DNA from: Clostridia bacterium
Lineage (GTDB): Bacteria; Bacillota; Clostridia; Oscillospirales; CAG-272
Length of the DNA stretch: 64,000 nt
Assembly: GCA_017631085.1 (NCBI GenBank)
Contig: JAGBTY010000050.1
Coordinates: 22,780-86,779 of the forward strand
Direction: 5' to 3'
The position numbers were made by a program, and so were the translations under genes. The notes under the pieces were generated by a model that was not told where the DNA came from, searched no databases, and saw nothing but the letters and a program-made list of their open reading frames with translations. Of the stretch, positions 3,705-63,953 are shown piece after piece; position 1 is the first letter of the stretch, and each line of letters begins with the position of its first letter.

Positions 3705-6659
3705 ATGAATAAGGATAATAACATTGACGATATATTGAAGCTTCTTAAAAATTCGGTAGAAGGTGAAGAGGCTACTGATACCAATTATGGTGATAGTGAA
3801 GCAAGATCATCGGAAGATATTTCGGAGGAAGTATTGAAAAAACAACTCCGCGATCAATATATGGGAGAGCTTTCGGAAATCGAAACGGATAGCTCGGATG
3901 AGGGTGAGGATAGCTACGCCCTTGATGACGATTTTCTTAAAGAAGCAGTGGCAGACGAGAGTGTCGCTGAAGAAACAGAAGAAATAGAAGAAATAGAAGA
4001 AATAGAAGAGCCCGAAGAAGCTTATGAAATACAAGAGGAGCTTGGTGAGATAATCATAGACGAAGATCTCGAAGAAGGAGCGGAAGAAGAGCCTGTTTTG
4101 TCAGAAGAGATCGACGAGTATGCAGAGCTTGACGAATATATTGAACAAATTCAAGCGGAAATAGAGGAACAGGAAGAAGACGAGTCTCTATTTGAACTGG
4201 GTGAAAACGAAGAGGATATTGAATCAAGAGCAGAAAATACCAATACTGAAGCTCTGGTCGCTTCAATGCTTGCTATAAGCTCTGATATGGAAGCATCTCA
4301 AAATGAAGGCGAAGAAGAGCTTCTCCAAGATATTGAATACATAGAAAGTGAGCCGACCGAAGAGGAAACAGAGACCTATGACGAGATAGTTTTTGCTTCC
4401 GAGAAGGATTCGTTTCAGGACAATATTCTTGACGAGGCTTTGGGCGCTGAAGTTTCTTATGACGAGGATTTTGATGACGAAGACATAAACAAAGAAGCCG
4501 AGATTTCAGACCAAGCTACCGAAGAAGCAGAGGAAGAAAGGATATCTTTAAAGGAGCTGTTGACAGATAGAAGTAATGATCCGAAAATTGAGGAAGATCA
4601 TGCTTTGGAGCTCCAGGAGGAAGAGAGCACCTCGTCTTCAAAATACGGAGACGATTATTCATATAATTCAGAGCAAGAGGAAGATAAGGAAAGCGAGATC
4701 TCTCTGCCCGATGACATAGACGAGCTTGACGATTCTGTTTTCGACATTATGATGCAGATGGGATGCTACGAAGAAGCAAAAGCATCGCTGAAGCGAAACG
4801 TGACAGAGGAAAGTAAGCAGGAAAGCCAAGAGATATCTGTCAAGGAACAGCAAAGAGAACAGGATAAGGAAAGACTTGAGGAAGCTCTGTTCGACTATCA
4901 GGTTGAAAAGAAAAACAGCCTACTCAGGCTTATTGGTATTGGAGTTATTACCCTTATTCTGCTTCTATATGAATTGCTTCCAATATTCGACGTATCCTTT
5001 AAGGGAATATTCGATTACGAAAACTATCCGGTTGCATATTCTCTTATAGGTCTGCAACTTGTGGTTTTTGATATTATAATAATGTACCGCAGACTTTGGA
5101 AGGGAATAAGATCTGTATTTACTACCGATAGATCGGTGGATAACGTTGTATCCTTTACCGTTGGCGTTGTTGTTTTGTATGATATCTTATCTCTTTTCGG
5201 TGTTTCGGAAAAAATGCCGATCGCATTTAATTTTATTATTTCCGTGCTTATGCTTCTTTTGTGTATTGACGAATTCATTTCCATAATTACAAAGATCAAT
5301 GGCTGCGAAATAGTATTATCCGACGATGCAAAATATGAATTTTCAAAGTGCGCAAGATTTGGCGGTGTTGCAGAAAAGATGTACCGTGGCGGATATAGCA
5401 CAGAAAGAAGCGTGTTTGTCATGAACGGAACAGATAATATCGATATGTATGCAAACGATATCATCGCCGACGAAAAATTGATATCAAAAAAATCCAAGAT
5501 ATTATTGATACCCGCATTTGTTTTAGCGGCAGTCATGTCTATGGTCTCGGTGATACTGGAGGGAGAATTTATCAGTGCGGTCGGCTCTTTTATAATAACT
5601 CTCTTGCTTATGCTTCCCATCGGTGACGTGGTTATAAACCTGTCACTTTATACCTGCGCAAGATATAAGCTTGTTAAAAAGGGAAGTGTCGTTAACGTTC
5701 AGAAGGTAATAGAAGCCTTCGAGAACGGAGATTCTGTAGTGTTCAGCGATCTTCACCTCTATAAAAAATGTCAGCCTAAAAACATGGGTATAGTGTTCCT
5801 CCGTGACGGACAGCAGTCGCTGGTCATAAGAGGACTTGCAGGGGTTTGTTCGGCAATAGGAGGACCTATGTCGGAGCTTTTTGCCGATGCTTCAAAAAAG
5901 CTTCAGCCTGCAGATGTCAGAATAAACAAAATATGGCACAACGGAATAGACGCATTTATAGACAGACGTTATTCATTCCTTATGGGTGATGCTAAATTCT
6001 TTGAAAAATACGGCATAGTTTTTCCTGAAAACAAAGATAAAACCGGGCGCGAGGGAGTTTCTACTTTGTGTATCGCCATAGGAGGACTTCCCGTTGCAAA
6101 GGTAAGCGTAAAATACGATATAGAGCCAAAGTTCGAGGTCATAGCCGAAAGACTTTACGAGTGCGGAATATCAACGGTAATTGAGACATATGATCCGCTT
6201 ATCAATAGTTCCTTTGTTGCTTCTTGCAGAAATACGGGATCAGCGCCCATAAACGTCGTGCATAAAAATATTGCCGACAAAGACGGAAATAAAAAGGAGA
6301 TCGAGGACAGAGACGGACGCGGTATTCTTTCATGCTCGTCAAGACTTAAGCTTGCCGAGGCTCTTGTGTGGTGCCGCAAAATAATAACTATCAGAAGGCT
6401 GTCGGGAATATTCTCTTGCGTTTTTGCAACTCTTGGACTACTTTTGTCCTGTGCCGCGATCGTACTCGGAATAACGGTAGACATAAACGAATTTTACGTT
6501 TTTGCTTATCTTTTGATCACATTGTTGATCTCGTTCCTTGCGGTAAATAAATATATTCCCAAAAAGTCATATTTTACAGTCGAAGCGTTGCAGAAAAGTA
6601 ATCGAAAGAAAAACACAAAAAACAGAGGTCATCTAAAAAATGAACAAGGAAATCAGTAG
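3705..6659 (+). CDS. Large membrane protein with three parts: a polyacidic N-terminal region of about 400 aa, a polytopic membrane domain, and a degenerate P1B-type-ATPase-like cytoplasmic (P/N) domain
   Basis: I prefer the ATG at 3705 (GGAGG at 3696-3700) to the track's GTG at 3669. The first ~400 aa are E/D-rich low complexity, including a 9-nt GAAGAAATA x3 repeat at 3978-4004. Multiple hydrophobic helices follow. The segment KKGSVVNVQKVIEAFENGDSVVFSDLHLYKKCQP is colinear with the P1B consensus GxLIKGGxxLExxxxxxxxxFDKTGTLTxGxP, but DKTGT is lost. VIETYDPLINSS sits where MLTGD is expected. Confidence 0.5.
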   Translation: MNKDNNIDDILKLLKNSVEGEEATDTNYGDSEARSSEDISEEVLKKQLRDQYMGELSEIETDSSDEGEDSYALDDDFLKEAVADESVAEETEEIEEIEEIEEPEEAYEIQEELGEIIIDEDLEEGAEEEPVLSEEIDEYAELDEYIEQIQAEIEEQEEDESLFELGENEEDIESRAENTNTEALVASMLAISSDMEASQNEGEEELLQDIEYIESEPTEEETETYDEIVFASEKDSFQDNILDEALGAEVSYDEDFDDEDINKEAEISDQATEEAEEERISLKELLTDRSNDPKIEEDHALELQEEESTSSSKYGDDYSYNSEQEEDKESEISLPDDIDELDDSVFDIMMQMGCYEEAKASLKRNVTEESKQESQEISVKEQQREQDKERLEEALFDYQVEKKNSLLRLIGIGVITLILLLYELLPIFDVSFKGIFDYENYPVAYSLIGLQLVVFDIIIMYRRLWKGIRSVFTTDRSVDNVVSFTVGVVVLYDILSLFGVSEKMPIAFNFIISVLMLLLCIDEFISIITKINGCEIVLSDDAKYEFSKCARFGGVAEKMYRGGYSTERSVFVMNGTDNIDMYANDIIADEKLISKKSKILLIPAFVLAAVMSMVSVILEGEFISAVGSFIITLLLMLPIGDVVINLSLYTCARYKLVKKGSVVNVQKVIEAFENGDSVVFSDLHLYKKCQPKNMGIVFLRDGQQSLVIRGLAGVCSAIGGPMSELFADASKKLQPADVRINKIWHNGIDAFIDRRYSFLMGDAKFFEKYGIVFPENKDKTGREGVSTLCIAIGGLPVAKVSVKYDIEPKFEVIAERLYECGISTVIETYDPLINSSFVASCRNTGSAPINVVHKNIADKDGNKKEIEDRDGRGILSCSSRLKLAEALVWCRKIITIRRLSGIFSCVFATLGLLLSCAAIVLGITVDINEFYVFAYLLITLLISFLAVNKYIPKKSYFTVEALQKSNRKKNTKNRGHLKNEQGNQ

Positions 6660-9259: not shown

Positions 9260-10771
9260 ATGAAAATGAAAGTAAAAATTTTGTCTCTTATAATGGCACT
9301 TCTTATGTGTGTTGCGGTATTTGTTGCATGTGATTCACCAAAAGCATCAGATGACGATGACGAAAAAGGCGGGGGTAACAAAAATAACGGAAGCGGAGCA
9401 AAGGAAAATATAAAATATTCCGAAGGACTTGAATATGAGGTAAATGACGACGGAAAGACCTGCTCTATTACATGGATAGGGGAGTGTACCGATACCAAAT
9501 TGATGATCCCTAAAGAGATTAACGGATATACGGTAACCGCAATTGGCGCTGAAGCATTTTATAAATGCGATGAGCTTGAGAAGGTAGTTATTCCCGATAC
9601 CGTTAAAAGAATTGGCACAAGCGCGTTTGTTTCTTGCTCGGAGCTTAAAAATGTATCTATTCCCGATGATATTATGTTTATCGGAGACAGTGCATTTGAT
9701 AATTGCAAAAATCTGATATTTAATGAATATGAGAACGCTAAATATTTGGGAAATGAAACCAATAAATACGTGTGTTTCTATAAGTTGATAGATAAAAATA
9801 AGAGCACCTCGGTCACAATGAATCCTTCAACAAAAATTATTGCAGACAACGTGTTTTATTTCAACACCAGACTTAAAAATGTAATCATTCCCGATAGTGT
9901 TAAAACTATTGGCGAAAGTGCTTTTTCCAGTTGTTCAAGCCTTGAGAATATAACGTTGCCGGACGGTGTTACATGCATAGGGGATAGTGCTTTTTCCTAT
10001 TGTTCAAGCCTTGAGAATATAACGTTACCTGACAGTGTTAGAATCATAGGGGACAGCGCCTTTTCCGGTTGTTCAAGTCTTAATAGTATAACATTATCCG
10101 ACGGTATTACAAGCATAGGTGACAGCGCCTTTTACCTTTGTTCAAGCCTTGAGAATATAACGCTACCCGACGGTATTACAAGCATAGGTGACAGCGCTTT
10201 TTCAAATTGTTCAACTCTTAAGAATATAACGTTACCTGACAGTGTTACAAGCATAGGAGACGGAGCTTTTAATTTTTGCTATGAGCTCATATTCAACAAA
10301 TACGGTAACGCATTATATTTGGGGAATGAAACAAACAAATATGTGTATCTGTACGGGGCAATAGATAAAGATAATTATTTTAACCCTGCTCAGATCACAA
10401 TACATCCTTCAACAAAAATTATTGAAAAAGAAGTGTTTTCCGATTTCGGGGGGAATGAGTATATAACTATTCCTGATAGCGTAATAAGTATTGGAGAATA
10501 CTGCTTTAGCTTTTCTCGGGAACTTAAAGGTGTGACAATAGGCAACGGAGTTACGAGCATTGAAAAAGGTATGTTTTATTCTTCTCAAGAATTGAAATAT
10601 GTAACTATCCCAAAAAGCGTCACGTCTATTGGGAAAGAAGCATTTCATAGAAACGATAACCTTACAGACATTTATTATACGGGAAGCAAGGAAGAATGGG
10701 AGCAGATAGAGATATCTGACGGAAATGATTCACTTGAGAACGCAACCATACATTACAATTACAAAGGTTAA
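9260..10771 (+). CDS. BspA-type leucine-rich-repeat surface lipoprotein
   Basis: I prefer the ATG at 9260 (GGAGG at 9250-9254). Signal peptide with lipobox FVAC. About 15 repeats of the 23-aa unit xxITLPDSVTSIGDSAFxxCSSLxx (69-nt period). Confidence 0.85.
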   Translation: MKMKVKILSLIMALLMCVAVFVACDSPKASDDDDEKGGGNKNNGSGAKENIKYSEGLEYEVNDDGKTCSITWIGECTDTKLMIPKEINGYTVTAIGAEAFYKCDELEKVVIPDTVKRIGTSAFVSCSELKNVSIPDDIMFIGDSAFDNCKNLIFNEYENAKYLGNETNKYVCFYKLIDKNKSTSVTMNPSTKIIADNVFYFNTRLKNVIIPDSVKTIGESAFSSCSSLENITLPDGVTCIGDSAFSYCSSLENITLPDSVRIIGDSAFSGCSSLNSITLSDGITSIGDSAFYLCSSLENITLPDGITSIGDSAFSNCSTLKNITLPDSVTSIGDGAFNFCYELIFNKYGNALYLGNETNKYVYLYGAIDKDNYFNPAQITIHPSTKIIEKEVFSDFGGNEYITIPDSVISIGEYCFSFSRELKGVTIGNGVTSIEKGMFYSSQELKYVTIPKSVTSIGKEAFHRNDNLTDIYYTGSKEEWEQIEISDGNDSLENATIHYNYKG

Positions 10772-13565: not shown

Positions 13566-14354
13566 TTAAGGCTTCGACGGAATATAGTTACAGGTTACTG
13601 ATATTTGATTTAAGATACTGTTGCCTTCTTTTATTTCGATTTTTTGATATTTTGAAATGCTTTCCTCATAAAGCAGTCCGCAAAGATCCTTGACACCGTC
13701 AAAGGCATAGGCTTCAATTACCTTTACACTTGTTGGGAGGAGATATTTTACTCCGGGACGCATTTGCGGATAACAAACGAGAGAGGTCTTGTCCTCTGAA
13801 AACAGTACGCCACCCACCGAGCAATAATAGTTATTGCTGGAGCTTACGTAAATTGCTATAAGAGAAGAACAACCAATAAAAGCTTTGTCTCCTATATATT
13901 TTACTGTGGCAGGGATCGTAATAGTGACGATCTCCTTGCAGTTTGCAAAGGCTTCCGCGGATATTTCCTCTACCACCTCTCCCGACGGACTTTTTGCGGG
14001 TATCTTTACTTCGGTATCCCGATACGTGCCAAGTCCCGAAATACAGCATGTGCCGTCTCCGTTTGATACGTAGAGTAGCTCATTGGCGCTTTGAGGTGTA
14101 TTGTTGTTTCCGTTTTGGTTTTTGTTTTCATCTGTAGGCGGAGTGGAAGAGAAAACATCTTGTGTCTTATTTTCTGTGTCTTGCGATTCTTCACCGGGGG
14201 TTCGTATGCATAACGCTACGATTCCGGCGGTTATCAGTATAAGACTTAATAAGGTAACTACAATTATGATGGCAAGCTTTTTCTTTGGCATTGCTTTAAG
14301 TTTTTCTTTTGCCTTTATTGTTTTTTCTTTGATCGAAATAAATATTTTTTTCAT
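13566..14354 (-). CDS. BspA-type LRR protein with an N-terminal transmembrane anchor
   Basis: N-terminal TM helix LAIIIVVTLLSLILITAGIVALCI, low-complexity linker, then LRR units (ISAEAFANCKEIVTITIPATVKYIGDKAFIGCSSL...). AAGGAG RBS. Confidence 0.75.
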   Translation of the reverse strand: MKKIFISIKEKTIKAKEKLKAMPKKKLAIIIVVTLLSLILITAGIVALCIRTPGEESQDTENKTQDVFSSTPPTDENKNQNGNNNTPQSANELLYVSNGDGTCCISGLGTYRDTEVKIPAKSPSGEVVEEISAEAFANCKEIVTITIPATVKYIGDKAFIGCSSLIAIYVSSSNNYYCSVGGVLFSEDKTSLVCYPQMRPGVKYLLPTSVKVIEAYAFDGVKDLCGLLYEESISKYQKIEIKEGNSILNQISVTCNYIPSKP

Positions 14355-14572: not shown

Positions 14573-15580
14573 ATGGGTTTTAAGATTGGAAATACAGAAT
14601 TAAAATACGGACTGATGTTAGCGCCCATGGCAGGAGTTACGGATAAAAGCTTCAGAGCAATATGCCGCAGCTTCGGAGCGGAATATACTGTCAGCGAAAT
14701 GGTATCGGCAAAGGCACTGTGTTACGAATCGAGAGCCAAAAAGCAGACGGCGTCTGTTACGGCATCTCTTGCATACGTGAGTCGAGAGGAGCTACCATTT
14801 TCTGTTCAGCTTTTTGGGAGTGAGTCCGAATTTATGGCGGAAGCCGCCAAAATGATAGAGGAGCTTTCATATAAGGGTTGCCGCGCTGACTGTCCACCCA
14901 CTGCAATTGACGTAAACATGGGTTGTCCTATGAGAAAGATAACCGGAAACGGCGAGGGAAGCGCCCTGATGCGTCAGCCAATGCTTGCGGGTAAGATAAT
15001 TGAAAATATGGTAAAAAGTATATCCTTGCCCGTTACCGTAAAGATCCGTTCGGGTTGGGATAAGGACAGTGTAAATGCCGTTGAGATGGCAAAGGTACTT
15101 GAAGCGAGCGGTGCGTCTCTTATTTGCGTTCATGCAAGGACACGAGAGCAGCTTTATTCACCGGGAATAGACCTTGGAGTTATCGAGAGCGTGAAAAAAG
15201 CGGTAAAAATTCCGGTTGTGGGAAACGGAGATATTTATTCTGCGGCTGATGCTATGAATATGATAGAAAAAACGGGCTGCGACGGTGTTATGATAGGACG
15301 GGGAGCAGAGGGAAATCCGTGGATATTCAAGGAAATACTTTCGGCAATGGAAGGAATAAATTATATTCCACCGACAGTAGAAGAAAAAATCGAACTTGCT
15401 AAAATGCAGCTCCATGAAATGATAGCCGATAAAGGCGAAAGAGTAGGACTTGCCGAAGCGAAAAAGCATATTGCGTGGTACACTGCGGGAGTTGTTGGCT
15501 CTGCGAAGGCAAGAGCAGAGATAATGACAGCTACCACAAAGGAAGAAGTAGAAACGGTATTGAATGCTTTAGTTATTTAA
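14573..15580 (+). CDS. dusB: tRNA dihydrouridine synthase B
   Basis: LAPMAGVTD..FR, DVNMGCP (catalytic Cys), VTVKIR.GW, HARTREQ, GNGDI and MIGRGA motifs. Confidence 0.92.
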   Translation: MGFKIGNTELKYGLMLAPMAGVTDKSFRAICRSFGAEYTVSEMVSAKALCYESRAKKQTASVTASLAYVSREELPFSVQLFGSESEFMAEAAKMIEELSYKGCRADCPPTAIDVNMGCPMRKITGNGEGSALMRQPMLAGKIIENMVKSISLPVTVKIRSGWDKDSVNAVEMAKVLEASGASLICVHARTREQLYSPGIDLGVIESVKKAVKIPVVGNGDIYSAADAMNMIEKTGCDGVMIGRGAEGNPWIFKEILSAMEGINYIPPTVEEKIELAKMQLHEMIADKGERVGLAEAKKHIAWYTAGVVGSAKARAEIMTATTKEEVETVLNALVI

Positions 15581-15905: not shown

Positions 15906-15940
15906 AATGGCTGCCTCTGTTTTGAGGCAGCCATTTTCTG
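15906..15940 (+). terminator. Terminator-like hairpin with its T-tract on the + strand
   Basis: 12-bp stem AATGGCTGCCTC / GAGGCAGCCATT followed by TTCTG. The U-tract is only convincing in the + orientation, although the nearest gene end (15951) is on the - strand. Confidence 0.45.
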
Positions 15941-15950
15941 TGGGTATTTA

Positions 15951-17099
15951 TTATTCGTTGTCTTCTTTCTTTTTGCGTATAACTGCCGATGTGACAAGAA
16001 CTGTGATAATGCTAACGCCCATACCGCTTATGACCGACGAACCGCAGCCGATTTTTTGGGTATCGGTTACGTCTTCGGTGGTATCGCTAAAGATTATATT
16101 CGCGTTTTTCAACGTTTCGTTATCTTGACCAATATTGATAGCGCTCCATTTTTCCTCTGTGCCGCCGTAGTATACGTCGGTAAGGGAAGTACAATCTTTG
16201 AATGCAGACGCTCCAATGCTTGTTACGCTTATAGGAATAGTCACGCTCTCAAGGCTTGAACAGCCGGAGAACGTAGATATTCCAATGCTTGTTACCTTGT
16301 CGGAAATGTAAACACTCGCAAGAGATGAGCAATCGGCGAAAGCCAAATGCCCAATAGTCGTTACGCTGTCGGGAACAGTCATACTTACAAGGCTGTCACA
16401 ATCTCCAAAGGCATAATCTTTAATATTTGTTACGCTGTCGGGGATAGTCACATTCGTAAGACTTGAACAACCCGCGAACGCAGAGCTTCCAATGCCTGTA
16501 ACACCATCCGGAATATTTATGCTTGTAATGGCGGAACAATTCCGAAATGCGTGATTTTCAATTTTTGTTACACCGTTGGGAATAGATATGCTTGTGAGAG
16601 CGGAACAGCCGTCGAAGGCAGAAGCTCCAATGCTTGTTACAGAGTCGGGAATGGTTACGTTTGTGAGAGCGGAACAGCCGTCGAAGGCAGAAGCTCCGAT
16701 GCTTGTTACAGTGTCGGGAATGGTTACGTTTGTAAGAGAGGAACAACCTTTGAAGGCGGAAGCTCCGATGCTTGTCACTGTGTCGGGAATAGTCACGTTT
16801 GTAAGGTCAGAACAATTATCGAAGGCGCCCTCGCCAATACTTGTTACACCACTTTCGATAACAACAAACATGGGTCTTTTATCCCAAGGCGAGTAGCTCG
16901 GATAGTCATCCATTTCTCCTGTACCGCTTATAGTCAGTACTCCGGAGTCAAGATTCCAAGTCAGGTTTTCTCCGCAGTCCCCGGAGTTCGGAGCTATGCT
17001 GAGCGCCGACGTTGTGACCGCGCCGAGAGGTATCATTATAAATATCATGACAAATACAGAAATGGCGGAGATCACTTTGAGGTTTTTCATTTTTTTCAT
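15951..17099 (-). CDS. BspA-type LRR surface protein with a Cys-containing C-terminal sorting-signal-like tail
   Basis: I prefer the ATG at 17099 (GGAGG 8 nt upstream). Signal peptide, about 11 LRR units (NVTIPDTVTSIGASAFxGCSSLT). The C-terminus is GCGSSVISGMGVSIITVLVTSAVIRKKKEDNE. Confidence 0.85.
   Translation of the reverse strand: MKKMKNLKVISAISVFVMIFIMIPLGAVTTSALSIAPNSGDCGENLTWNLDSGVLTISGTGEMDDYPSYSPWDKRPMFVVIESGVTSIGEGAFDNCSDLTNVTIPDTVTSIGASAFKGCSSLTNVTIPDTVTSIGASAFDGCSALTNVTIPDSVTSIGASAFDGCSALTSISIPNGVTKIENHAFRNCSAITSINIPDGVTGIGSSAFAGCSSLTNVTIPDSVTNIKDYAFGDCDSLVSMTVPDSVTTIGHLAFADCSSLASVYISDKVTSIGISTFSGCSSLESVTIPISVTSIGASAFKDCTSLTDVYYGGTEEKWSAINIGQDNETLKNANIIFSDTTEDVTDTQKIGCGSSVISGMGVSIITVLVTSAVIRKKKEDNE
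15958..16050. repeat. Copy A of a 93-nt direct repeat (3' end of the LRR gene)
   Basis: Identical to 17154-17246 at 91 of 93 positions by eye alignment. Encodes the GCGSSV..RKKKED tail. Confidence 0.9.
16596..16733. repeat. Near-perfect 69-bp tandem duplication inside the LRR gene
   Basis: Units 16596-16664 and 16665-16733 differ at 2 positions. Flanking 69-nt units are more diverged. Confidence 0.85.
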
Positions 17100-17149
17100 T
17101 TTCGTTTCCTCCAATAGAATGATATTTGTCTTTTGGGATTTACAGATTA

Positions 17150-19966
17150 TTATTTGTCTTCTTTCTTTTTGCGTATAACTGCCGATGTGACAAGAACTGT
17201 GATAATGCTAACGCCCATACCGCTTACGACCGACGATCCGCAGCCGCGTTTTTCTTCGGTTCTGTTATCTCCGCTATCTGAATTGTCCGCTTCATTGTTG
17301 TTGGAATCATTTTCTGATACTTCAGGTGTTTTTGTCTCGGTGTCGGTAACGCCATCAGTGGCAGTATCAGTATCGGTATCAGTATCGGTATCAGTATCGG
17401 TATCAGTATCGGTATCAGTATCGGTATCAGTATCGGTATCAGTATCGGTATCAGTATCAGTATCAGTATCAGGATTATTATCGGAAATATCGCCCTTTAC
17501 GTGTTCGCAACCGTCGTGCAAGGGAAGATCGACCGTTATCTCCTCGACCAAGCTTGGAGATAGGATACCTTCAGATGTGGCTATTACAGTTGAATTTTTG
17601 AGAGAAAAGGTAAGGGTAAGCTGTTCGTTATCACCGATGGGGAGCTCTCCTTTAAAATAAACCGTCTTTTTTTCGTCCGAGAGGTGCGAAAAGCTCATTG
17701 TAATTTCGCTGTCGCTCTCTTTTACATAAACGGTAGCCTTGGCGTCTTCGAGGGTTGAATATAGTTCGTAAACCTCTTTTGTTAAATTGAGAGCAAGGAT
17801 TATTTCATTGTCACCGCATAAGGAAGCATCCTTCAAAGGAGAAAGGGTTGCAATTGGTTCTTTTTCTTCTTCTTTTGACGGATTTGTCAGCTTTTCGATG
17901 GAATATTCGTCATAAATGAGAGGGCCGGGTTCATAAAGGATCGCGATATTTCCGTCACCTTTATCCGCGAGACAGCTATACCAGAAGGCAGAATCGTTTA
18001 TATCGTAGGAATATTTCCATTCTACGCTGTATCTTCCGTAAGCGGGGGCATCAAACCCCTCGTTTTCTGTTATAAGACCTATTTTCAAAACACCGTTGGT
18101 TCTTGAAGCTGTATCATGTGTTCCTTCGGGGTAGGAAATTGCGATAGCATCCTTTCCGTCGATCTTCGCATTGAGATTTGTGACCGATACCATACAGTCC
18201 TTGCAGTAGAATAGGTCTTTATCATGAACGACGGGACTGAATGTCACACCGCCGTCAATACTGTCCGCGTATCCGATATATCGGGTGTTTGTTCGGGTAT
18301 ACATACGGATCGTTCCGTCGGGAAGCTCAATAAGCTGTGTCTCACTTGCCTGAGTGGGCGAGTCTGTCGTTCCGAATGTGGTCCTCTCACCCATGAGCCA
18401 TGTTTTTCCGCCATCGTCGCTGTAAAGCATTCTCGTGACGAGCTGTCCGCCGCTGTATATCGGGAAAAGGATACGTCCTGCATATTCACCCGTCTTGACT
18501 TGGATTCCAACACCGGGACTCTTGTTGAAATAAGGTTCATTTTTTTCAGCGCGATATTCGCTTCCTACAAGCATGGGGTCTGACCAGGTGAATCCACCGT
18601 CGTCGCTGTAAATAAGCCAGAAGTATGAGGTGCAATAGACTTTGAAAAGGGAAGCGCTGTAAAAGATATTCATTGGAACGTCTTTTTCAAGGTTGGGCTT
18701 TTGCTTTACCGTAAGAGGTGTTCCGTTTTGATAGATATAAAATTCCGAGTTTGTCGTGTATCCAGTATCAGAATTATCTGCTACTTTTTTAATTATGTAT
18801 TTGTCATACGTTTTTGTCGAATTGGGATTTGGACACAGATAATATTCGTAGTCTGCGCTTGGAGCTGTGGGGTCTCCCATGGTAAGAGCGTAATAGGATT
18901 TGTCTCCTACCTTGACCGTGCCGTTTCCTCTTCCGCCTATACCGCCGCCACCGTTTGCGGGCATGACGTCTGTAAGGAGAAAGATTCTTCCGCTATCGAC
19001 CTGAACGATAGAAGCGTCTATAAATGATGCTGAATCGCGATCGGAGTAATCGTGCTCATAATCATTGAAATTACAGGGAACTATGGCATCTGACCAGGTG
19101 TTAGTTTTTTTATCAAGGATTCTGACACCTATCTCAATGTTGTTCGGTGAATCCGCAAGAGTTGAACGAAGGTCGGCTGCTGCTAACATATTGCCATTCT
19201 GAAGAGTTATAAGGCAGGGAATACGGAATGTGGAAATATTAAAATCGTCTCCGTGGCTGAATGGCTGTCCGCATTCAAGATGAGAATTGACAGAGGGTGT
19301 TGCCGAGGTGTATTTTTTTAGCTCCGAGGACGAAAAAGCTTTTCTGTATACTGCAAGCTTTCCGATAGATCCCTCAAAGAGATATTCATTGCTTCCTGCA
19401 GATCTGTCTGTTGCTCCTATAAGAATACTGTTAAGACCGTCGATGTCAGAAAGCTTTTTATATGTTCCTTCGTCGAATTTTTTTGTGTCGATCAGCGAGC
19501 CGTTAAGATAGAGCTTGAACGTATAGTCGTCAGCGTTTGCGGAAAATGCAAGAGTATTTATTCCGTAAGGATTTGCAGAATAAGAACTTACGGACAAGCT
19601 GCTGTCCGCGCCCATTCTGAATTCGTATCCGACTCTTTCTCCGTCTACATATACGTGAAAATGATGAGCAGGAGCGGAGCTGTTGCTTATTCCCAAAAGA
19701 GAGGAAGCAATTCCGTCGGTCTGCATAAACTGGCACATAACGGTAAAAGATTCTGCTTCTTTCATTTCGTCAAGATGCTCCGTAAAATCCAAAACGTCAA
19801 GTCCATTCTTCCTGAATTTTTTTATTCCGTCTGTTGCAAAAACGAGAGAATCCTCGTGAGCCGTGCCTATATCCCCAGAGTTTTTTGTTTGTGCCGAAGC
19901 GGAAAATGCCAAGGTATTTATAAGTATAAAGGCAAGAACGAATACAGATATCAATCTTCTTTTCAT
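17150..19966 (-). CDS. Cell-surface exo-alpha-sialidase (GH33) with an N-terminal lectin-like (CBM40/LamG-like) domain, a DT-repeat stalk and a C-terminal sorting-signal-like tail
   Basis: I prefer the ATG at 19966 (GGGAGG upstream). Signal peptide, FRIP motif (STFRIPCLITL), and Asp-boxes SDDGGFTWS, SDDGGKTWL and SIDGGVTFS. The N-terminal domain (LLGISNS..HFHVYVDGERVGYEFR) resembles sialidase lectin domains. A (DT)18 run is followed by GCGSSVVSGMGVSIITVLVTSAVIRKKKEDK. Confidence 0.9.
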   Translation of the reverse strand: MKRRLISVFVLAFILINTLAFSASAQTKNSGDIGTAHEDSLVFATDGIKKFRKNGLDVLDFTEHLDEMKEAESFTVMCQFMQTDGIASSLLGISNSSAPAHHFHVYVDGERVGYEFRMGADSSLSVSSYSANPYGINTLAFSANADDYTFKLYLNGSLIDTKKFDEGTYKKLSDIDGLNSILIGATDRSAGSNEYLFEGSIGKLAVYRKAFSSSELKKYTSATPSVNSHLECGQPFSHGDDFNISTFRIPCLITLQNGNMLAAADLRSTLADSPNNIEIGVRILDKKTNTWSDAIVPCNFNDYEHDYSDRDSASFIDASIVQVDSGRIFLLTDVMPANGGGGIGGRGNGTVKVGDKSYYALTMGDPTAPSADYEYYLCPNPNSTKTYDKYIIKKVADNSDTGYTTNSEFYIYQNGTPLTVKQKPNLEKDVPMNIFYSASLFKVYCTSYFWLIYSDDGGFTWSDPMLVGSEYRAEKNEPYFNKSPGVGIQVKTGEYAGRILFPIYSGGQLVTRMLYSDDGGKTWLMGERTTFGTTDSPTQASETQLIELPDGTIRMYTRTNTRYIGYADSIDGGVTFSPVVHDKDLFYCKDCMVSVTNLNAKIDGKDAIAISYPEGTHDTASRTNGVLKIGLITENEGFDAPAYGRYSVEWKYSYDINDSAFWYSCLADKGDGNIAILYEPGPLIYDEYSIEKLTNPSKEEEKEPIATLSPLKDASLCGDNEIILALNLTKEVYELYSTLEDAKATVYVKESDSEITMSFSHLSDEKKTVYFKGELPIGDNEQLTLTFSLKNSTVIATSEGILSPSLVEEITVDLPLHDGCEHVKGDISDNNPDTDTDTDTDTDTDTDTDTDTDTDTDTDTDTDTDTDTATDGVTDTETKTPEVSENDSNNNEADNSDSGDNRTEEKRGCGSSVVSGMGVSIITVLVTSAVIRKKKEDK
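17154..17246. repeat. Copy B of the 93-nt direct repeat (3' end of the sialidase gene)
   Basis: 91/93 identity to 15958-16050. The flanking sequence is unrelated. Confidence 0.9.
17364..17471. repeat. Hexanucleotide/dodecanucleotide microsatellite (GTATCA/GTATCG)n encoding (Asp-Thr)18
   Basis: 18 consecutive 6-nt units. The first ~15 alternate GTATCA/GTATCG (12-nt period) and the last ones are pure GTATCA. In frame within the sialidase gene. Confidence 0.95.
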
Positions 19967-20224: not shown

Positions 20225-20875
20225 ATGGAACAAAAAAAGCAAAATCTGACTATGATCGTTATAATGGCTGTGTTGGCGGTTGTCGGAATAGTTCTTTTCG
20301 TTTTTGGATGCGTATTTGACGGAAGTCTTTTTGTAAAGATATCGGCGATAATAACCGCTGTTATTTGTCTTGCTTTGGCGGGGGAGCTTGCATACGTTAC
20401 CTTTTTTGCGGGAGACATGAATTCAAATTATTTTTTGTATGATGCTAAAACAAAAAAGAACGTTTCTCTCCAAAAGCTAACATTTCAAACGGTAAACGCG
20501 AGAATGAACAGATATATTTCGTACTATGCGTCCTCCGAGGGAAAGCTTTGGACAGAGGGTGTACTTGAGTCGCCCGAGCTTGATATGGGTGAGGAGTTTA
20601 AGCCTTTGGTCGCATATAAGCTTTTGTATGATCTTGCCGAGGCAAACTCTGAAAACGCATGGAAGTGCTTTGAGGTTTGCGGGGAAGGAACGGTTGAGTG
20701 TATCTGCTCGTGGATAGCATCGGCAGGAGATGCAGAAATGGCTGATAATATCATAAAAATGAAGCAGCTTCGCCCTTATAACGGAGCATACATAAAGGAC
20801 TATCTTGTAAGAAACCGTAAATATCTTCAGAGCAGAATGTTTAAGTACGTATACGAAAACATTGATAAATTTTAA
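20225..20875 (+). CDS. Hypothetical membrane protein (two N-terminal TM helices plus a soluble Cys-containing domain)
   Basis: 216 aa with an AGAGG RBS. TM helices MIVIMAVLAVVGIVLFVFGCVF and ISAIITAVICLALAGELAYVTFF. I recognise no motif in the C-terminal domain (KCFEVCGEGTVECICSW). Confidence 0.6.
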   Translation: MEQKKQNLTMIVIMAVLAVVGIVLFVFGCVFDGSLFVKISAIITAVICLALAGELAYVTFFAGDMNSNYFLYDAKTKKNVSLQKLTFQTVNARMNRYISYYASSEGKLWTEGVLESPELDMGEEFKPLVAYKLLYDLAEANSENAWKCFEVCGEGTVECICSWIASAGDAEMADNIIKMKQLRPYNGAYIKDYLVRNRKYLQSRMFKYVYENIDKF

Positions 20876-20906
20876 AATATTTTTGGCAAAATATTGAGGT
20901 ATTGGT

Positions 20907-21614
20907 GTGTTTACTGTCAAAATGGCGGATATCGTTATCCGTATTGAAAATAAATACGACTACATTTTCGGACTCTGCTCGAAATTTATCATAAAGGATA
21001 CCGAAAAGGCAGATATGACGGTCAGTGCAGATATTTCCGAGCTTCAGGAAGAGATAGATGGGGCAGAGCATCCTATAAGCGAAGCGTATGCTGAAGCATT
21101 GGTGGTATACCGTAAGATATGCGTAAGACTTCCGATAGAATATGACGGCTTTCTTTTCCACAGCGCTCTTATAGAGTACGAGGGAAGAGGGTATGCTTTT
21201 GCGGCAAAGAGCGGCACGGGAAAATCAACCCATATATCGCTGTGGCAAAAGAAATTTGGCGAGTCGGTCAGAGTTATAAACGGAGACAAGCCCATATTCC
21301 GTGCAGTAGGAGAGGAGATAATGGCTTACGGAACACCATGGTGCGGTAAAGAAAATCTTTCCGAAAATGCCTCTGTTCCCCTTAAAGCAATTTGCTTTAT
21401 CGTGCGTTCAAAAATCAATTCGATACGCAAAATTGAAGCGAAGGACGCAATAATACCCATGTTTTCGCAGATATTACGCCCTACCGATATTGAAACCACC
21501 GACGCGCTGTTTGCTTTGCTGGAAAAAACACTGAACAAGGTAGAGTGTTACGTTCTCGAATGTAACATATCCGAAGAAGCGGCAGAGGTCGCATATAACG
21601 GAATGAAAGAGTGA
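20907..21614 (+). CDS. HPr-kinase-C-terminal-domain-like P-loop protein (putative peptide/protein Ser kinase)
   Basis: GTG start 7 nt after GAGG. The Walker-A-like AAKSGTGKSTH resembles the HprK GxSGxGKSE loop, followed by INGDKP...GTPWCG. Size and layout match the HprK-like proteins found beside PqqD genes. Confidence 0.6.
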   Translation: MFTVKMADIVIRIENKYDYIFGLCSKFIIKDTEKADMTVSADISELQEEIDGAEHPISEAYAEALVVYRKICVRLPIEYDGFLFHSALIEYEGRGYAFAAKSGTGKSTHISLWQKKFGESVRVINGDKPIFRAVGEEIMAYGTPWCGKENLSENASVPLKAICFIVRSKINSIRKIEAKDAIIPMFSQILRPTDIETTDALFALLEKTLNKVECYVLECNISEEAAEVAYNGMKE

Positions 21615-21621
21615 GGAAAAT

Positions 21622-21885
21622 ATGAAAATAAAAGAAGGATTTGTTATAAGAGAGGTCGCAGGTCAGAGTGTCGTTATCGCGCTTGGAGCAGCGGCTAAAA
21701 GCTATAACGGTATGATAAGACTTAACGATACTGCAAAGCTTATCTGGCAATGTCTTGAAAAGGGACAGGATAAGGATGCTATCGTTGATGCTATCCTTTC
21801 CGAATACGACGTTGACAGAGAACTTGCAGAAAATGATTTCGACAAGTTTATAAATGCTTTGATAGGAGCTAATATAATTGAGTAA
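21622..21885 (+). CDS. PqqD-family protein (RiPP recognition element-type peptide chaperone)
   Basis: 87 aa. KEGFVIREVAGQSVVI......MIRLNDTAKLIWQCLEKGQDKDAIVDAILSEYDVDRELAENDFDKFINALIGANIIE is the canonical PqqD pattern: a beta strand, then LN.ta..iW.l..g, then the helical D...F...L tail. Confidence 0.8.
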   Translation: MKIKEGFVIREVAGQSVVIALGAAAKSYNGMIRLNDTAKLIWQCLEKGQDKDAIVDAILSEYDVDRELAENDFDKFINALIGANIIE

Positions 21886-22336
21886 TTCGGAATTCAGCTA
21901 TGCTGATATTATAGACGTGATAAGAGAGGTTCTTGACAGTGACGGAGAGATAAAGATACAGCCTCACGGTACGAGCATGCTTCCTCTCATTGTTCAGGGA
22001 AGAGACAGCGTAGTTTTGAGAAAACCTAAAAAAATAAAAAAACACGATATTATTTTTTACCGTCGTGATAACGGACAGTTCGTTCTTCATAGAGTAATGA
22101 AAAAAAGCTCGGACGGAACATTTGTGTTGCTTGGTGACAGTCAGACCGAGTTTGAATATGATATAAAAGAAGAACAGATAATTGCATACGTATGCCGTAT
22201 TGAGCGAAAAGGCAAGGTCTTGAAGATCACTTCCTTGTCATATCGCTTTTACGTTTTTTTATGGACGAAAATGCCGATCCGCAGGGTGCTTTGCTTTGTG
22301 GGGAGAAAAGTCGCTTTTTTGCGAAAAAAAGTTTAA
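21878..22336 (+). CDS. S24/S26-family serine peptidase (signal-peptidase/LexA fold; SipW-like Ser motif and HRV motif)
   Basis: The TTG start overlaps the PqqD stop by 8 nt (GGAG 9 nt upstream). GTSMLPLI nucleophile motif, HDIIFY...FVLHRVMKK second box, and a C-terminal hydrophobic segment YRFYVFLWTKMPIRRVLCFVG. No N-terminal TM helix. Confidence 0.65.
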   Translation: MSNSEFSYADIIDVIREVLDSDGEIKIQPHGTSMLPLIVQGRDSVVLRKPKKIKKHDIIFYRRDNGQFVLHRVMKKSSDGTFVLLGDSQTEFEYDIKEEQIIAYVCRIERKGKVLKITSLSYRFYVFLWTKMPIRRVLCFVGRKVAFLRKKV

Positions 22337-28195: not shown

Positions 28196-29005
28196 ATGTT
28201 TCCTTATGAGATTTTTTCAGGATTTGATACATATGCATTGATGCTTTGTATCGGTCTTGTTGCCGCTATTTTATCATTCAGATTTGTGTCGGATAAAACA
28301 AATATAAGCGGAAAGCTTCAGAACTTATGTCTTTATAACGGAGTTGTATCGATCGGATTCGGTTATTTTTCGGCAGTTTTCTTTCAAGCTATGTATAATA
28401 TTGCAAAAAACGGAGGCTTCGTGATAGATTCCAAAACGGGAGCTACCTTTTACGGCGGACTTGTGGGCGGAGCTGCGATCTTTTTAATTATATATTTCGT
28501 TGCAGGTGCAGTTATATTCAAAGAGGGCGGGGAGCATAAAAAGAAGTTTTGGATCATGAGCGACGTTGCGTGTGCCTCTATTGCATTAGGTCATGCCTTT
28601 GGCCGTATTGGCTGTCTTTTTGCGGGGTGCTGTCATGGAGCAGAGACAGATGCATGGTACGGCATATATATGCAAAGCATAGATAAAAAGGTCATTCCCA
28701 CACAACTTTTCGAGGCTATCTTTCTCTTTGCCCTTTCTGCATTTTTCTTCGTTCGCGTGAAAAAACATAAAACGTATAATCTGCCTATATATATGGGTGC
28801 ATATGGCGCATGGCGTTTCGCTCTCGAATATATGAGAGACGATTACAGAGGAACGACCGTCGTTGATTTTTTGACACCGTCGCAATTTATAGCCTTACTT
28901 ATGATCATAGGTGCTGTTGTTCTTTATATTATCGAAAAGGCGCTTATTGAAAAAGCCGAAAATGAAGTAGACCAAGAGATCGTCGGCGTAGCAAAAGAAG
29001 AGTGA
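28196..29005 (+). CDS. lgt: Prolipoprotein diacylglyceryl transferase
   Basis: Polytopic membrane protein with the Lgt signature GRIGCLFAGCCHG, the YGGLVGG motif and PTQLFEA. Confidence 0.9.
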   Translation: MFPYEIFSGFDTYALMLCIGLVAAILSFRFVSDKTNISGKLQNLCLYNGVVSIGFGYFSAVFFQAMYNIAKNGGFVIDSKTGATFYGGLVGGAAIFLIIYFVAGAVIFKEGGEHKKKFWIMSDVACASIALGHAFGRIGCLFAGCCHGAETDAWYGIYMQSIDKKVIPTQLFEAIFLFALSAFFFVRVKKHKTYNLPIYMGAYGAWRFALEYMRDDYRGTTVVDFLTPSQFIALLMIIGAVVLYIIEKALIEKAENEVDQEIVGVAKEE

Positions 29006-29009
29006 AAAA

Positions 29010-29807
29010 ATGAGTAAAACAAAATTTGATAAAATATTATTTGTCACTGTAATAGGACTTTTTGTCCTTTTGCTTATTGAGACCTTTCAAAGCACGATCT
29101 TCGGTGACGGACTTATAGGCGGATTTCTGTATTCTATTACCACAAGATATCTTGGTAGCGTACTGTGTATTCTGGTAATATATAAATATTCGGCAAAGAG
29201 GATTCTTTATAATTTGCCAAAAGCTAATTCGTTGCTTCTTTTTTTGGTGTGCATGGTCATAGCGGTAAATAATTTTCCGTTTTTAGCATACGTTCGAGGA
29301 GATGCATATATAAGTGAAGGTATATTGGAGATAATATTATTTGCCGTAATGTGTCTTGGCGTAGGACTTTTTGAAGAGCTTGCTTTTCGCGGTTGTGTCT
29401 TTACTCTCATTTTAAGAAACAAAAGAAGCAGCAGAGCAGATGTTTTTTGGTCGATAGTACTGTCTTCAGCAGTTTTTGGAGTGATACACCTTACAAATCT
29501 TTTCGCGGGGGCATCACCCGGATCTGTTTTCTTGCAGATAGGATATTCCTTTTTGATAGGAGGAATGTGCTCGGTCGTCCTTATTAAAACGGGAAATGTT
29601 TTTTGTTGTGCCATAATACACGCGGTATATAACTTTGCAGGAACTGTCATACCCACACTCGGTGGAGGGAATATGCTGAATGTTCCCACTGTGATCATTA
29701 CCGCAATACTTGCATTGGCGGTGGCTACATATATTGTAATCGAGCTTGTAAGATTTGACGTGAGCAGTCTGGACCTTATTTTTGAAGAAGAGAGCAGGAG
29801 TGTATGA
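29010..29807 (+). CDS. CPBP-family (CAAX-type) intramembrane glutamic endopeptidase
   Basis: Motif 1 EELAFRG, motif 2 FGVIHL, motif 3 HAVYN, in a polytopic protein of about 7 TM helices. Starts 4 nt after the lgt stop. Confidence 0.85.
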   Translation: MSKTKFDKILFVTVIGLFVLLLIETFQSTIFGDGLIGGFLYSITTRYLGSVLCILVIYKYSAKRILYNLPKANSLLLFLVCMVIAVNNFPFLAYVRGDAYISEGILEIILFAVMCLGVGLFEELAFRGCVFTLILRNKRSSRADVFWSIVLSSAVFGVIHLTNLFAGASPGSVFLQIGYSFLIGGMCSVVLIKTGNVFCCAIIHAVYNFAGTVIPTLGGGNMLNVPTVIITAILALAVATYIVIELVRFDVSSLDLIFEEESRSV

Positions 29808-29831: not shown

Positions 29832-30491
29832 GTGGTCACATTTGAAGAAATAAAAAATAACGAAGTAATAAAAACGTATATACGTGAGGCAGATGAATCG
29901 CTAAAGGCAATTGGATATACAGAACATAGCTTTGCCCATGCGGGAATAGTTGCTAATAACGTTGGTTATATTCTCAAAACATTAGGCTATTCGGAGAGAT
30001 ACGTTGACGTGGCAAAGATAGCTGCATATCTTCATGATATAGGTAATCTAATAAATCGTATCGAGCATTCCCAAAGCGGAGCAATAATGGCTTTTCGTAT
30101 CTTGAGTGAGCTCGGCATGGATGCGGAGGAGATAGCAACCATAATAACGGCTATCGGAAATCATGACGAGGGAACGGGCGCTCCCGTAAATTCCGCGGCT
30201 GCGGCTCTTATACTCGCAGATAAATCTGACGTGAGAAGGTCGCGTGTAAGAGAGCGAAATATTCCCGCGTTTGACATTCATGACAGAGTAAATTATTCGG
30301 TTGCTTCTTCTAAGCTTACGGTAGATGCGGAGAAGAAGGAGGTCTATCTGTGCCTTGTTATAGAGACCGAATACAGCTCGGTCATGGAGTATTTCGAAAT
30401 ATTTCTCGATAGAATGCTTTTGTGCCGAAAGGCCGCCACAGCTCTTGGTCTTGAGTTTCATTTCAAAGTAAACGGCCAAGTCCTTTTATAA
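29832..30491 (+). CDS. HD-domain phosphohydrolase
   Basis: HSFAHA...AAYLHDIGN (H...HD) and NHDEG motifs. I prefer the GTG at 29832 (AAAGGAG 5 nt upstream) to the track's TTG at 29814. The start is uncertain. Confidence 0.7.
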   Translation: MVTFEEIKNNEVIKTYIREADESLKAIGYTEHSFAHAGIVANNVGYILKTLGYSERYVDVAKIAAYLHDIGNLINRIEHSQSGAIMAFRILSELGMDAEEIATIITAIGNHDEGTGAPVNSAAAALILADKSDVRRSRVRERNIPAFDIHDRVNYSVASSKLTVDAEKKEVYLCLVIETEYSSVMEYFEIFLDRMLLCRKAATALGLEFHFKVNGQVLL

Positions 30492-63323: not shown

Positions 63324-63953
63324 TTAGTATAATTCGTGTTTTATGCCGTAGCTTTTTGCATATGATTCTGCAAAAGAGCCGTCAGGGCAATATATAGTGA
63401 TTTGATCTGAAAATGAACCGAACGCTGAATGACCTATACTCGTTACGCTGTCGGGGATGGTTATTTTTATTAATGATGTGCAATTGCTGAAAGCGAACCA
63501 ACCGATCTTTTCAATTCCTTCGGATATCAATATTACTCTTGCTTTTTGCGGCAGATTACAATTGTCTGCGATGGCTATTATTTTGTACCCATCTATGTGT
63601 GACGGTATTACCATATTTTCTTCATCGCCTGAAAAACCTGTAATTACCGCAGAATTATTGTCGATCTCATATGTAAATTGCGCGGACGGTTCGGGTGTGG
63701 GCTCGGGGCTTGATGTGGGAATGTCTTGCTTGAGGCCTAAAATAATGTCTTTTAAGCTCTCAAGTTCACTTTTGTATTGTTCGATAGAGGTGGTTTGATT
63801 TTTGATCAATTCTTCTAATTTTTGCACATCGGTATCTTGAGGTTCTGGATCTGCCGGAATGTTGTTTTGAGGTGATTGGGGGGAGCATGATATCATAAAT
63901 ACAGGTAAGGCTATTGCAACAATAAAACAGATGTATAATATGAATCTTTTCAT
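63324..63953 (-). CDS. Small BspA-type LRR lipoprotein
   Basis: Signal peptide with lipobox MISC, Pro/Gln-rich linker, short coiled-coil-like stretch, then LRR units (ISEGIEKIGWFAFSNCTSLIKITIPDSVTSIGHSAF). Confidence 0.75.
   Translation of the reverse strand: MKRFILYICFIVAIALPVFMISCSPQSPQNNIPADPEPQDTDVQKLEELIKNQTTSIEQYKSELESLKDIILGLKQDIPTSSPEPTPEPSAQFTYEIDNNSAVITGFSGDEENMVIPSHIDGYKIIAIADNCNLPQKARVILISEGIEKIGWFAFSNCTSLIKITIPDSVTSIGHSAFGSFSDQITIYCPDGSFAESYAKSYGIKHELY

Follow-up and report, generated by a model that had tools for sequence, protein, structure and literature searches.

Why do two neighbouring genes that encode unrelated proteins end in nearly the same stretch of DNA, and what does this shared end do for the proteins that carry it? 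The question is raised by 64,000 nucleotides from the assembly of a Clostridia bacterium (GCA_017631085.1, contig JAGBTY010000050.1, positions 22,780 to 86,779; this whole stretch is termed the window in the following), in which the gene of an exo-alpha-sialidase and that of a BspA-type leucine-rich repeat (LRR) protein share a 3' module encoding a cysteine-containing C-terminal tail, referred to here as the GCGS tail. C-terminal sorting signals determine which proteins a bacterium displays on its surface, and the textbook surface routes of Gram-positive bacteria are the LPXTG/sortase system and the N-terminal lipoproteins. The GCGS tail is previously uncatalogued: it resembles the known class of Cys-type sorting signals, yet falls outside every named family by the tests of membership applied.

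The shared 3' module and its two host genes

The two genes, their tails and the linker ahead of the sialidase tail are located as follows (coordinates refer to the window):

15951..17099 (-): BspA-type LRR surface protein, 382 aa (PF13306 LRR_5, E 4.5e-78)
17150..19966 (-): exo-alpha-sialidase, 938 aa (PF02973, E 2.4e-23; PF13088, E 8.5e-12)
15951..16050 (-): 3' module A, encoding the C-terminal tail on the LRR protein (91 of 93 nt shared with module B); codons G-C-G-S-S-V-I-S-G-M-G-V-S-I-I-T-V-L-V-T-S-A-V-I-R-K-K-K-E-D-N-E-stop
17150..17246 (-): 3' module B, encoding the C-terminal tail on the sialidase (91 of 93 nt shared with module A); codons G-C-G-S-S-V-V-S-G-M-G-V-S-I-I-T-V-L-V-T-S-A-V-I-R-K-K-K-E-D-K-stop
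17354..17484 (-): (Thr-Asp)n low-complexity linker directly ahead of the sialidase tail, 12-nt unit in about 9 copies, 98% match

The module copies are aligned over 15958-16050 and 17154-17246; of their two mismatches, at 16031 (T/C) and 16041 (A/T), one is synonymous and the other exchanges Val for Ile. When the LRR gene was compared with the sialidase gene by blastn, a single stretch of 100 nt matched (96% identity, E 1.8e-43), the identity being lost within a few bases at either side, and an exact central 51-mer occurs twice in the window at a shuffle expectation of 0 (100 shuffles). The identity and both C-terminal translations had been described in a first-pass annotation of the window and were reproduced here: the LRR protein ends in ..IGCGSSVISGMGVSIITVLVTSAVIRKKKEDNE and the sialidase in ..RGCGSSVVSGMGVSIITVLVTSAVIRKKKEDK, written jointly ..GCGSSV[V/I]SGMGVSIITVLVTSAVIRKKKED(K|NE)*. 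A GCGS-type tail is absent from all remaining open reading frames (ORFs) of the window, and, as the same annotation had stated, no LPXTG motif, sortase or exosortase is present in the window; a rhomboid was not found there either.

The LRR protein possesses a Sec signal peptide at its N-terminus and an acidic/Thr linker leading into the tail; its gene contains 69-nt repeats at 16565-16850. The sialidase is composed of a signal peptide (..AFSASA|Q), a lectin-like N-terminal domain (PF02973) and a BNR propeller; its (Thr-Asp)n linker is likely a wall-spanning stalk, and the repeat recalls the Ser-Asp stalks of staphylococcal Sdr adhesins. Both genes lie adjacent on the minus strand (50 nt gap; promoter-like site at 20040-20012) and apparently form an operon. 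An inverted repeat (GGCTGCCTC-TGTTTTG-AGGCAGCC, 15909-15932) separates the LRR gene from the convergent dus gene (14573-15580) and probably terminates transcription in both directions, although it was not among the results of the terminator scan.

The GCGS tail family and its place among catalogued signals

The closest homologue of the window sialidase (P0001, obtained in an unrelated sequencing run, 43% identity) has the C-terminus ..GGCGSVIGGTAIALTATLALGAGITFKKKEDQ* (GCGS..KKKEDQ): both sialidase tails agree in G-C-G-S, the 21-residue spacing and KKKED, but differ in the sequence of the helix. At the equivalent position, Clostridium sialidase homologues carry LPxTG tails; uncultured gut Clostridia use the GCGS tail where their relatives use LPXTG. 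One genome per species (185,579 species) was scanned with the degenerate DNA pattern GGN TGY GGN WSN - N63 - AAR AAR AAR GAR GAY (GCGS-x21-KKKED), which specifies neither a hydrophobic stretch nor a stop codon. About 59 of the 66 matches (61 loci) were true C-termini, with G-GCGS followed by 21 purely hydrophobic residues, KKKED and an immediate stop; nearly all of these were located in metagenome-assembled genomes (MAGs) of uncultured Clostridia, 'Eubacteriales', Oscillospiraceae or Ca. Scatosoma, the tail-positive MAGs originating from the guts of ruminants and other animals. The 7 chance matches (Chloroflexota, Patescibacteria, archaea and one Bacteroidales repeat), in contrast, had neither helix nor stop. 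The same contrast was obtained when JGI metagenomes were scanned with the identical pattern (12 true versus 13 chance matches; the 12 metagenome tails came mostly from one sample). A search of the fetched loci for any tripartite C-terminus added about 30 variant tails, with the motifs GCGG, GCSS, SCGS, NCKS, GCKG, GCAS and GCDG and the ends KKKKED, RKKED, KKKEN and KKRRNRR, and detected no LPXTG-type tail in about 500 kb of tail loci.

In total, 91 tail-bearing ORFs were found in at least 36 species-level assemblies, the MAG JAFVSI01 holding at least 13 tail carriers; a dedicated family of C-terminal signals is almost certainly real. The first-pass annotation had suggested a dedicated and possibly undescribed anchoring or processing signal, and had stated that confinement of the tail to the two window proteins would speak against it; the tail is not so confined. 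The suggestion is borne out by the occurrence of the tail on about 90 unrelated proteins with signal peptides, by its invariant Cys and by the stop codon right after KKKED. At one locus (L046, CALDPN010000086.1), the contig that holds a typical tail gene of the Clostridia type was binned as 'Bacteroidales'; this bin is probably contaminated.

A type-I Sec signal peptide (MKKxLS...AxA) is present on every tail-bearing ORF whose start falls within its locus. The domains of the passengers are mutually unrelated (Sialidase, Endonuclease_1, Metallophos, NAGPA, GDPD, LRR_5, Flg_new, FIVAR, Big_3, LTD), most tail carriers being without Pfam domain; the largest cargo group, proteins of about 540 aa without Pfam or NCBIfam domain, is encoded by tandemly arranged genes, 3-4 paralogues per array, all of which possess a signal peptide and a tail of their own (L023/L024, L038, L041, L051, L054). 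In an alignment of 64 proteins (9% mean column identity), the Cys forms the sole invariant column, and G-1, G+1, S+2 and KKK are each conserved to at least 90%; Cys is found in 83/83 unique tails, the search patterns themselves having required it. The consensus consists of an upstream half, T/E/A/D/P-rich linker - [K/E]-[G/K/S]-G-C-G-S-[V/S]-[V/I]-G-x-G-A, and a downstream half, Ala/Val/Gly-rich helix - [F]-K-K-K-E-D-COOH, with the basic cluster set off from the Cys by 21-23 residues and a helix of 25% A, 22% V, 15% G, 0.5% P and essentially no charge. Followed from the Cys into the helix, the residues C-G-S-[V/I/L] correspond to a bacterial lipobox ([L/V/I]-[A/S/T]-[G/A/S]-C) in inverted order. 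Ordinary N-terminal lipoboxes exist in the same genomes (..VFVAC|D, ..IFASC|G, ..AFAGC|N), and three other LRR_5 proteins of the window are anchored at their N-terminus, two of them via a lipobox (..VFVAC|DSP, ..FMISC|SPQ) and one via a helix:

9260-10771 (+): N-terminally anchored BspA/LRR_5 protein
13566-14354 (-): N-terminally anchored BspA/LRR_5 protein
63324-63953 (-): N-terminally anchored BspA/LRR_5 protein

LPXTG signal, N-terminal lipobox and GCGS tail hence replace each other on the same passenger types, as is expected of a sorting signal.

Tails of dissimilar passengers show 54% identity in their helix (20 residues) within a MAG versus 24.5% between MAGs (42 within-MAG versus 2361 between-MAG pairs; Mann-Whitney p ~1e-16, the pairs being non-independent), and the window pair represents the extreme within-genome case (95% helix identity). 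Homogenisation of tails is a general habit of the GCGS signal, beyond the window pair. The gene conversion or module shuffling postulated at first pass agrees with these values and with the sharp homology boundaries: they support the view that the window copies owe their near-identity to a recent gene conversion or exchange of modules, a process by which the tails of one genome are kept alike.

No sorting-signal model of NCBIfam (release 20, June 2026) recognised the tails (9 queries, E<=10) or the full-length carriers (64 proteins, E<=1e-3), and Pfam gave no match on the tail. The LPXTG anchor model (TIGR01167) was aligned only over its positions 12-34, i.e. helix and basic end, with 14.3-15.9 bits versus a cut-off of 15.9; assignment to the LPXTG cell-wall anchors was rejected, no tail containing LPXTG and the window being free of sortase. 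Trivial scores were given by the Synerg-CTERM, cyano-PEP and PTPA models; Synerg-CTERM (TIGR04564) reached 8.8 bits versus a cut-off of 22.5, its invariant Pro in a Leu-rich helix being missing, and PTPA-CTERM is not applicable to the tails. Likewise, JDVT-CTERM and CGP-CTERM gave no model match, and the tails lack a DP or CGP motif. A link to Firmicu-CTERM (TIGR04145), which the first-pass annotation had brought up, did not hold: the 9 tails and 64 carriers gave no match, on the assumption that this model is included in NCBIfam release 20. The comparison with the MYXO-CTERM model (TIGR03901) that it had recommended was equally without match for tails and carriers, and membership in MYXO-CTERM was rejected (GCGS instead of a GCGC-type motif, KKKED instead of an Arg-rich end, Clostridia instead of Myxococcota with type II secretion).

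Full-text literature searches returned no description of a GCGS/KKKED tail. Haft (10.1101/2023.06.07.544157) united MYXO-, JDVT-, Synerg- and CGP-CTERM in one class of tripartite, invariant-Cys signals and predicted that each of them is cut by its own cognate glutamic intramembrane protease of the CPBP/Rce1-like type. Cleavage of MYXO-CTERM by MrtX has been shown, and an 'Lgt-like acyl-transferase' was drawn as the leading, unproven candidate for the Cys-modifying enzyme (mBio 2025, PMC11980579); neither publication mentions Firmicutes or a linkage to lgt. By analogy, the GCGS tail would work like a myxosortase-type signal.

The Lgt-CPBP gene pair and the proposed pathway

A gene pair of the window that the first-pass annotation had overlooked, having listed no partner enzyme, is situated 8-11 kb from the tail module genes:

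28196..29005 (+): Lgt-family gene (prolipoprotein diacylglyceryl transferase), 269 aa (PF01790, E 2.4e-29, 102.8 bits)
29010..29807 (+): CPBP/Rce1-like glutamic intramembrane protease gene, 265 aa (PF02517, E 1.3e-17, 64.3 bits versus a cut-off of 22.4)

The CPBP gene starts 4 nt past the Lgt stop. Its product (AlphaFold2 model with pLDDT 92.7) retains E122, E123, R127, F156, H160, H204 and N208 of the EExxxR, FxxxH and HxxxN motifs, which are invariant or at least 99% conserved among 120 homologues. These are the best 120 of 798 homologues; they show 42% identity or more and derive without exception from MAGs/metagenomes of uncultured Clostridia or Ruminococcaceae; this orthologue group and the tails are both confined to uncultured Clostridia MAGs/metagenomes. 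Five of the 7 NCBIfam matches of the CPBP protein are myxosortase models, all under their cut-offs (Mrt_core NF040914, 26.3 bits versus 100; MrtJ, 27.0 versus 75; MrtC, 20.7 versus 195; MrtS, 19.3 versus 130; MrtP, 13.9 versus 250), and membership in a described Mrt family was rejected as every score lies far below. A Foldseek search of the PDB with the CPBP model returned nothing informative, and in the PDB sequence search the single sequences were without match, the Lgt profile alone reaching 5azb.

The Lgt gene is located directly upstream of the CPBP gene in every context read, mostly overlapping the CPBP start by 4-11 nt and otherwise at a distance of at most 33 nt. Four types of flanking genes were observed: pyr operon and his operon (the window type); IMPDH-YccF and AraC/rhamnose or tRNA genes; GlyRS and ROK/NifS; and, at locus L048, TsaD with a tail-bearing Big_3 protein and CitMHS. 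At L048, which encodes the most divergent CPBP (~43% identity), the stop of the tail-bearing Big_3 gene precedes the Lgt gene by 68 nt; the tail, Lgt and CPBP genes follow one another on the same strand, the gap between the tail gene and Lgt is free of predicted terminators, and a perfect TTGACA-17-TATAAT stands upstream of the tail gene. Downstream of the pair, a protein of ~219 aa with HD domain is encoded in most relatives (L063-L071, L097-L102), its gene in many cases overlapping the stop of CPBP; L048, L101 and the window lack it, the window having an unassigned 137-aa ORF (30048-30461, -) instead.

The signature of the window Lgt, GRIGCLFAGCCHG, is of a 'CC-type', in which N146 and E151 of E. 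coli Lgt are both replaced by Cys (GRIGCL[F/M]AGCC[H/Y]G versus E. coli GRLGNFINGELWG). With respect to the 13-residue Lgt motif Y26 H103 G104 G142 R143 G145 N146 E151 G154 Y235 R239 E243 R246 (Legood 2025), the profile alignment to 5azb showed G142, R143, G145, G154, R239 and E243 to be kept, R137 of the window enzyme corresponding to R143, and H103 to be Y, as is normal in Firmicutes. The equivalog models were reached only under their cut-offs (TIGR00544, 74.9 versus 118.9 bits; NF000778, 120.8 versus 334). The CC motif is present in all 150 best Lgt relatives of a 1.84-billion-protein library, and CC-type variants have been reported before among 'distantly related Lgt-s' (10.1101/2025.03.27.645668); the assumption of a dedicated divergent Lgt paralogue was therefore dropped, and the window enzyme may be the only Lgt of its lineage. 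An Acholeplasmataceae MAG encodes a CC-type homologue (P0254 cluster) that bears no annotation other than 'hypothetical protein', so that the subfamily reaches beyond the tail-bearing Clostridia.

The tail is probably a processed sorting signal, and we lean towards the reading that it is a new Cys-type tripartite signal belonging to the MYXO-CTERM class and used by a Gram-positive lineage, with a Cys that is lipidated and a helix that a CPBP protease cuts off. According to this model, which follows the logic of MYXO-CTERM/myxosortase and CAAX/Rce1, the protein would be exported via Sec by its N-terminal signal peptide and retained in the membrane by its C-terminal helix and the Lys residues that follow, its Cys being positioned on the outer side. 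A lipid would then be added to the invariant Cys, for which the Lgt-family enzyme (28196-29005) would be the best candidate, as C-G-S-[V/I] reads as a reversed lipobox; the translationally coupled CPBP (29010-29807) would cut just past the Cys and release the helix-KKKED peptide. The mature protein would remain on the outer leaflet via its lipidated C-terminal Cys, with the (TD)n or TEAP-type linker spanning the wall. A mirror-image lipoprotein pathway, in which the CC-type Lgt diacylglycerylates the Cys of a 'retro-lipobox' (C-G-S-V) and CPBP acts as a 'C-terminal signal peptidase', is a distinctly speculative version of this scheme.

The Lgt-CPBP pair would be the best candidate machinery, since it has been kept through rearrangements and deep divergence and is directly adjoined by a cargo gene at L048. 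The protease is further indicated by the pairing of Cys-type signals with CPBP elsewhere, by catalytic motifs whose integrity suggests an active enzyme, and by a window without sortase, rhomboid and exosortase; the chance that the window CPBP cleaves the tail is close to even, and the Lgt-family enzyme can be proposed only tentatively to lipidate the Cys. Several observations weigh against the pair. It lies within 8 kb of a tail gene at 1 of ~55 tail loci, a non-significant value at ~0.2 expected; none of 15 other CPBP-centred loci (~10 distinct) has a tail within 10 kb, and clustering of the neighbours at 55 tail loci revealed no recurrent adjacent enzyme, only housekeeping synteny (NusB, TsaD, XseA, an aminotransferase, a radical SAM protein, a GDSL lipase). 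As the pair itself is mostly found in housekeeping synteny, its conservation could reflect the vertical inheritance of a general lipoprotein function, and, given the classical N-terminal lipoproteins of these genomes, the Lgt may be a plain housekeeping enzyme; its CC motif, known from distant Lgts, does not set it apart. Lgt-CPBP fusions are absent among the long CC-type Lgt relatives, whose additional parts correspond to GHMP kinase or phage Gp30.3 or are unassigned, CPBP never being among them. To this are added the low score of the CPBP against Mrt_core and the fact that the CPBP-fold protein LnsB of S. aureus works in N-terminal lipoprotein acylation (PMC7387801).

These points nourish the alternative that the tail is processed by another enzyme (sortase-like, rhomboid-like or of other kind) encoded elsewhere in the genome, the Lgt-CPBP pair serving N-terminal lipoprotein maturation in the manner of LnsB or another membrane role. 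The missing enrichment of the pair near tail genes, the scores below all myxosortase cut-offs, the numerous CPBP genes of Firmicutes, the function of LnsB and the classical lipobox proteins all agree with it. LnsB, however, lacks the CPBP catalytic motifs (PMC7387801), all of which are kept in the window CPBP family; CPBP is the only enzyme class tied so far to Cys-type tails (10.1101/2023.06.07.544157; PMC11980579), the tail, Lgt and CPBP genes are contiguous at L048, and neither the enzymes in question in the window (sortase, rhomboid, exosortase) nor LPXTG-type tails in the ~500 kb of tail loci were encountered, so that we regard this alternative as unlikely.

Slightly further down the scale stands an unprocessed tail anchor, in which helix and KKKED would stay as a stop-transfer anchor without cleavage and G-C-G-S would serve reversible S-acylation, a disulfide with a partner or helix capping. 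The architecture by itself suffices for membrane retention, its helix and basic part resemble generic Firmicute anchors (LPXTG_anchor positions 12-34, 14-16 bits), and no processing enzyme is consistently found beside the tail genes. Yet a mere anchor leaves unexplained why an invariant Cys with near-invariant Gly, Gly and Ser is maintained in 64 unrelated proteins at a fixed spacing of 21-23 residues, and why related sialidases bear a processed LPXTG signal at the equivalent place; moreover, all described invariant-Cys tripartite signals have been linked to processing (10.1101/2023.06.07.544157; PMC11980579), and we consider the unprocessed anchor quite improbable. That the adjacent window genes merely exchanged their 3' ends by chance recombination, without wider meaning, would conform to the adjacency of the copies, their 97.8% nt identity and the sharp boundaries; the idea is refuted for practical purposes by the same tail type on ~90 other proteins of at least 36 species-level genomes and by the closest sialidase homologue, which comes from an unrelated sample and carries this tail type with a quite different helix.

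If the preferred reading of a lipidated and CPBP-cleaved Cys-type signal is true, the GCGS tail would represent a third, uncatalogued surface route in abundant uncultured animal-gut Clostridia. It would mark their surface proteome, comprising the mucin-relevant sialidase, BspA-type adhesins and nucleases, and annotators could recognise such cargo directly by means of a profile model of the tail. For the Cys-type signals the protease is known, whereas the modifier of the Cys is an open question with Lgt as the published leading guess (PMC11980579); coupled Lgt and CPBP genes in an organism without outer membrane or type II secretion would offer a simple two-gene system to test this guess. Should the mirror-image pathway be true, a surface protein would be held by a lipidated C-terminal cysteine, and with the Lgt-CPBP operon, genomic data would for the first time point to the lipidating enzyme that is missing from all myxosortase-type systems.

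Apart from the tail and the gene pair, the window contains a block upstream of the pyr operon (20225-22336, +) with an unassigned 216-aa membrane ORF, a ScmC-like/HPr-kinase-like protein (20922-21614), PqqD (21622-21885) and a small ORF; it is kept in all syntenic relatives (L063, L069-L071, L099, L100, L102) and might be a candidate peptide-modification cassette. Two ORFs, 3705-6656 (+, 984 aa) and 49015-50331 (+, 439 aa), have no Pfam match at E<=1e-3.

Comparison with known systems

Among the known systems, MYXO-CTERM/MrtX (TIGR03901) shares with the GCGS tail the tripartite structure, an invariant Cys within G-C-G that abuts the helix, a helix without charge or Pro, dozens of unrelated signal-peptide cargo proteins per genome, a CPBP protease in the genome and the proposed order of Cys lipidation followed by cleavage. 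In contrast to its GCGC motif and Arg-rich end, the window tail exhibits GCGS and a Lys-rich cluster with a conserved Glu-Asp end; its host belongs to the Gram-positive Clostridia, which have neither the outer membrane nor the type II secretion of Myxococcota. Furthermore, translational coupling of CPBP to an Lgt-family gene, as present in the window pair, has not been reported for Mrt systems. Synerg-CTERM/MrtS (TIGR04564) is similar in the single invariant Cys that ends a small Gly/Ser cluster without spacer before the helix, and in its limitation to one gut-associated lineage; it differs by its invariant Pro, its Leu-rich helix and its phylum, the helix of the window tail being Ala/Val/Gly-rich with almost no Pro.

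The LPXTG/sortase A system (TIGR01167) likewise acts on C-termini of Gram-positive surface proteins including sialidase homologues, with an acidic or repeat linker upstream and a helix followed by a K/R-rich end (14-16 bits over model positions 12-34). The window tail has a Cys motif and no LPXTG or xPxTG, no sortase accompanies it in the window, and its expected product is a membrane lipid anchor instead of a peptidoglycan link. With the lipobox/Lgt/LspA pathway the tail has in common a Cys placed by small residues at the outer end of a helix, and the Lgt-family gene beside the candidate protease; in the tail, however, the Cys is C-terminal and the chain runs the opposite way with respect to the helix, a CPBP rather than signal peptidase II is the candidate protease, and the Lgt is of CC-type (N146C, E151C). 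Finally, the eukaryotic/archaeal CAAX/Rce1 system belongs to the same superfamily (PF02517) and features a lipid on a Cys near the C-terminus with a cut just past it; there, three residues are removed and the lipid derives from prenyl diphosphate by a prenyltransferase, whereas the tail system would lose a helix segment of ~29 residues from an extracytoplasmic substrate, presumably after modification by Lgt from phosphatidylglycerol.

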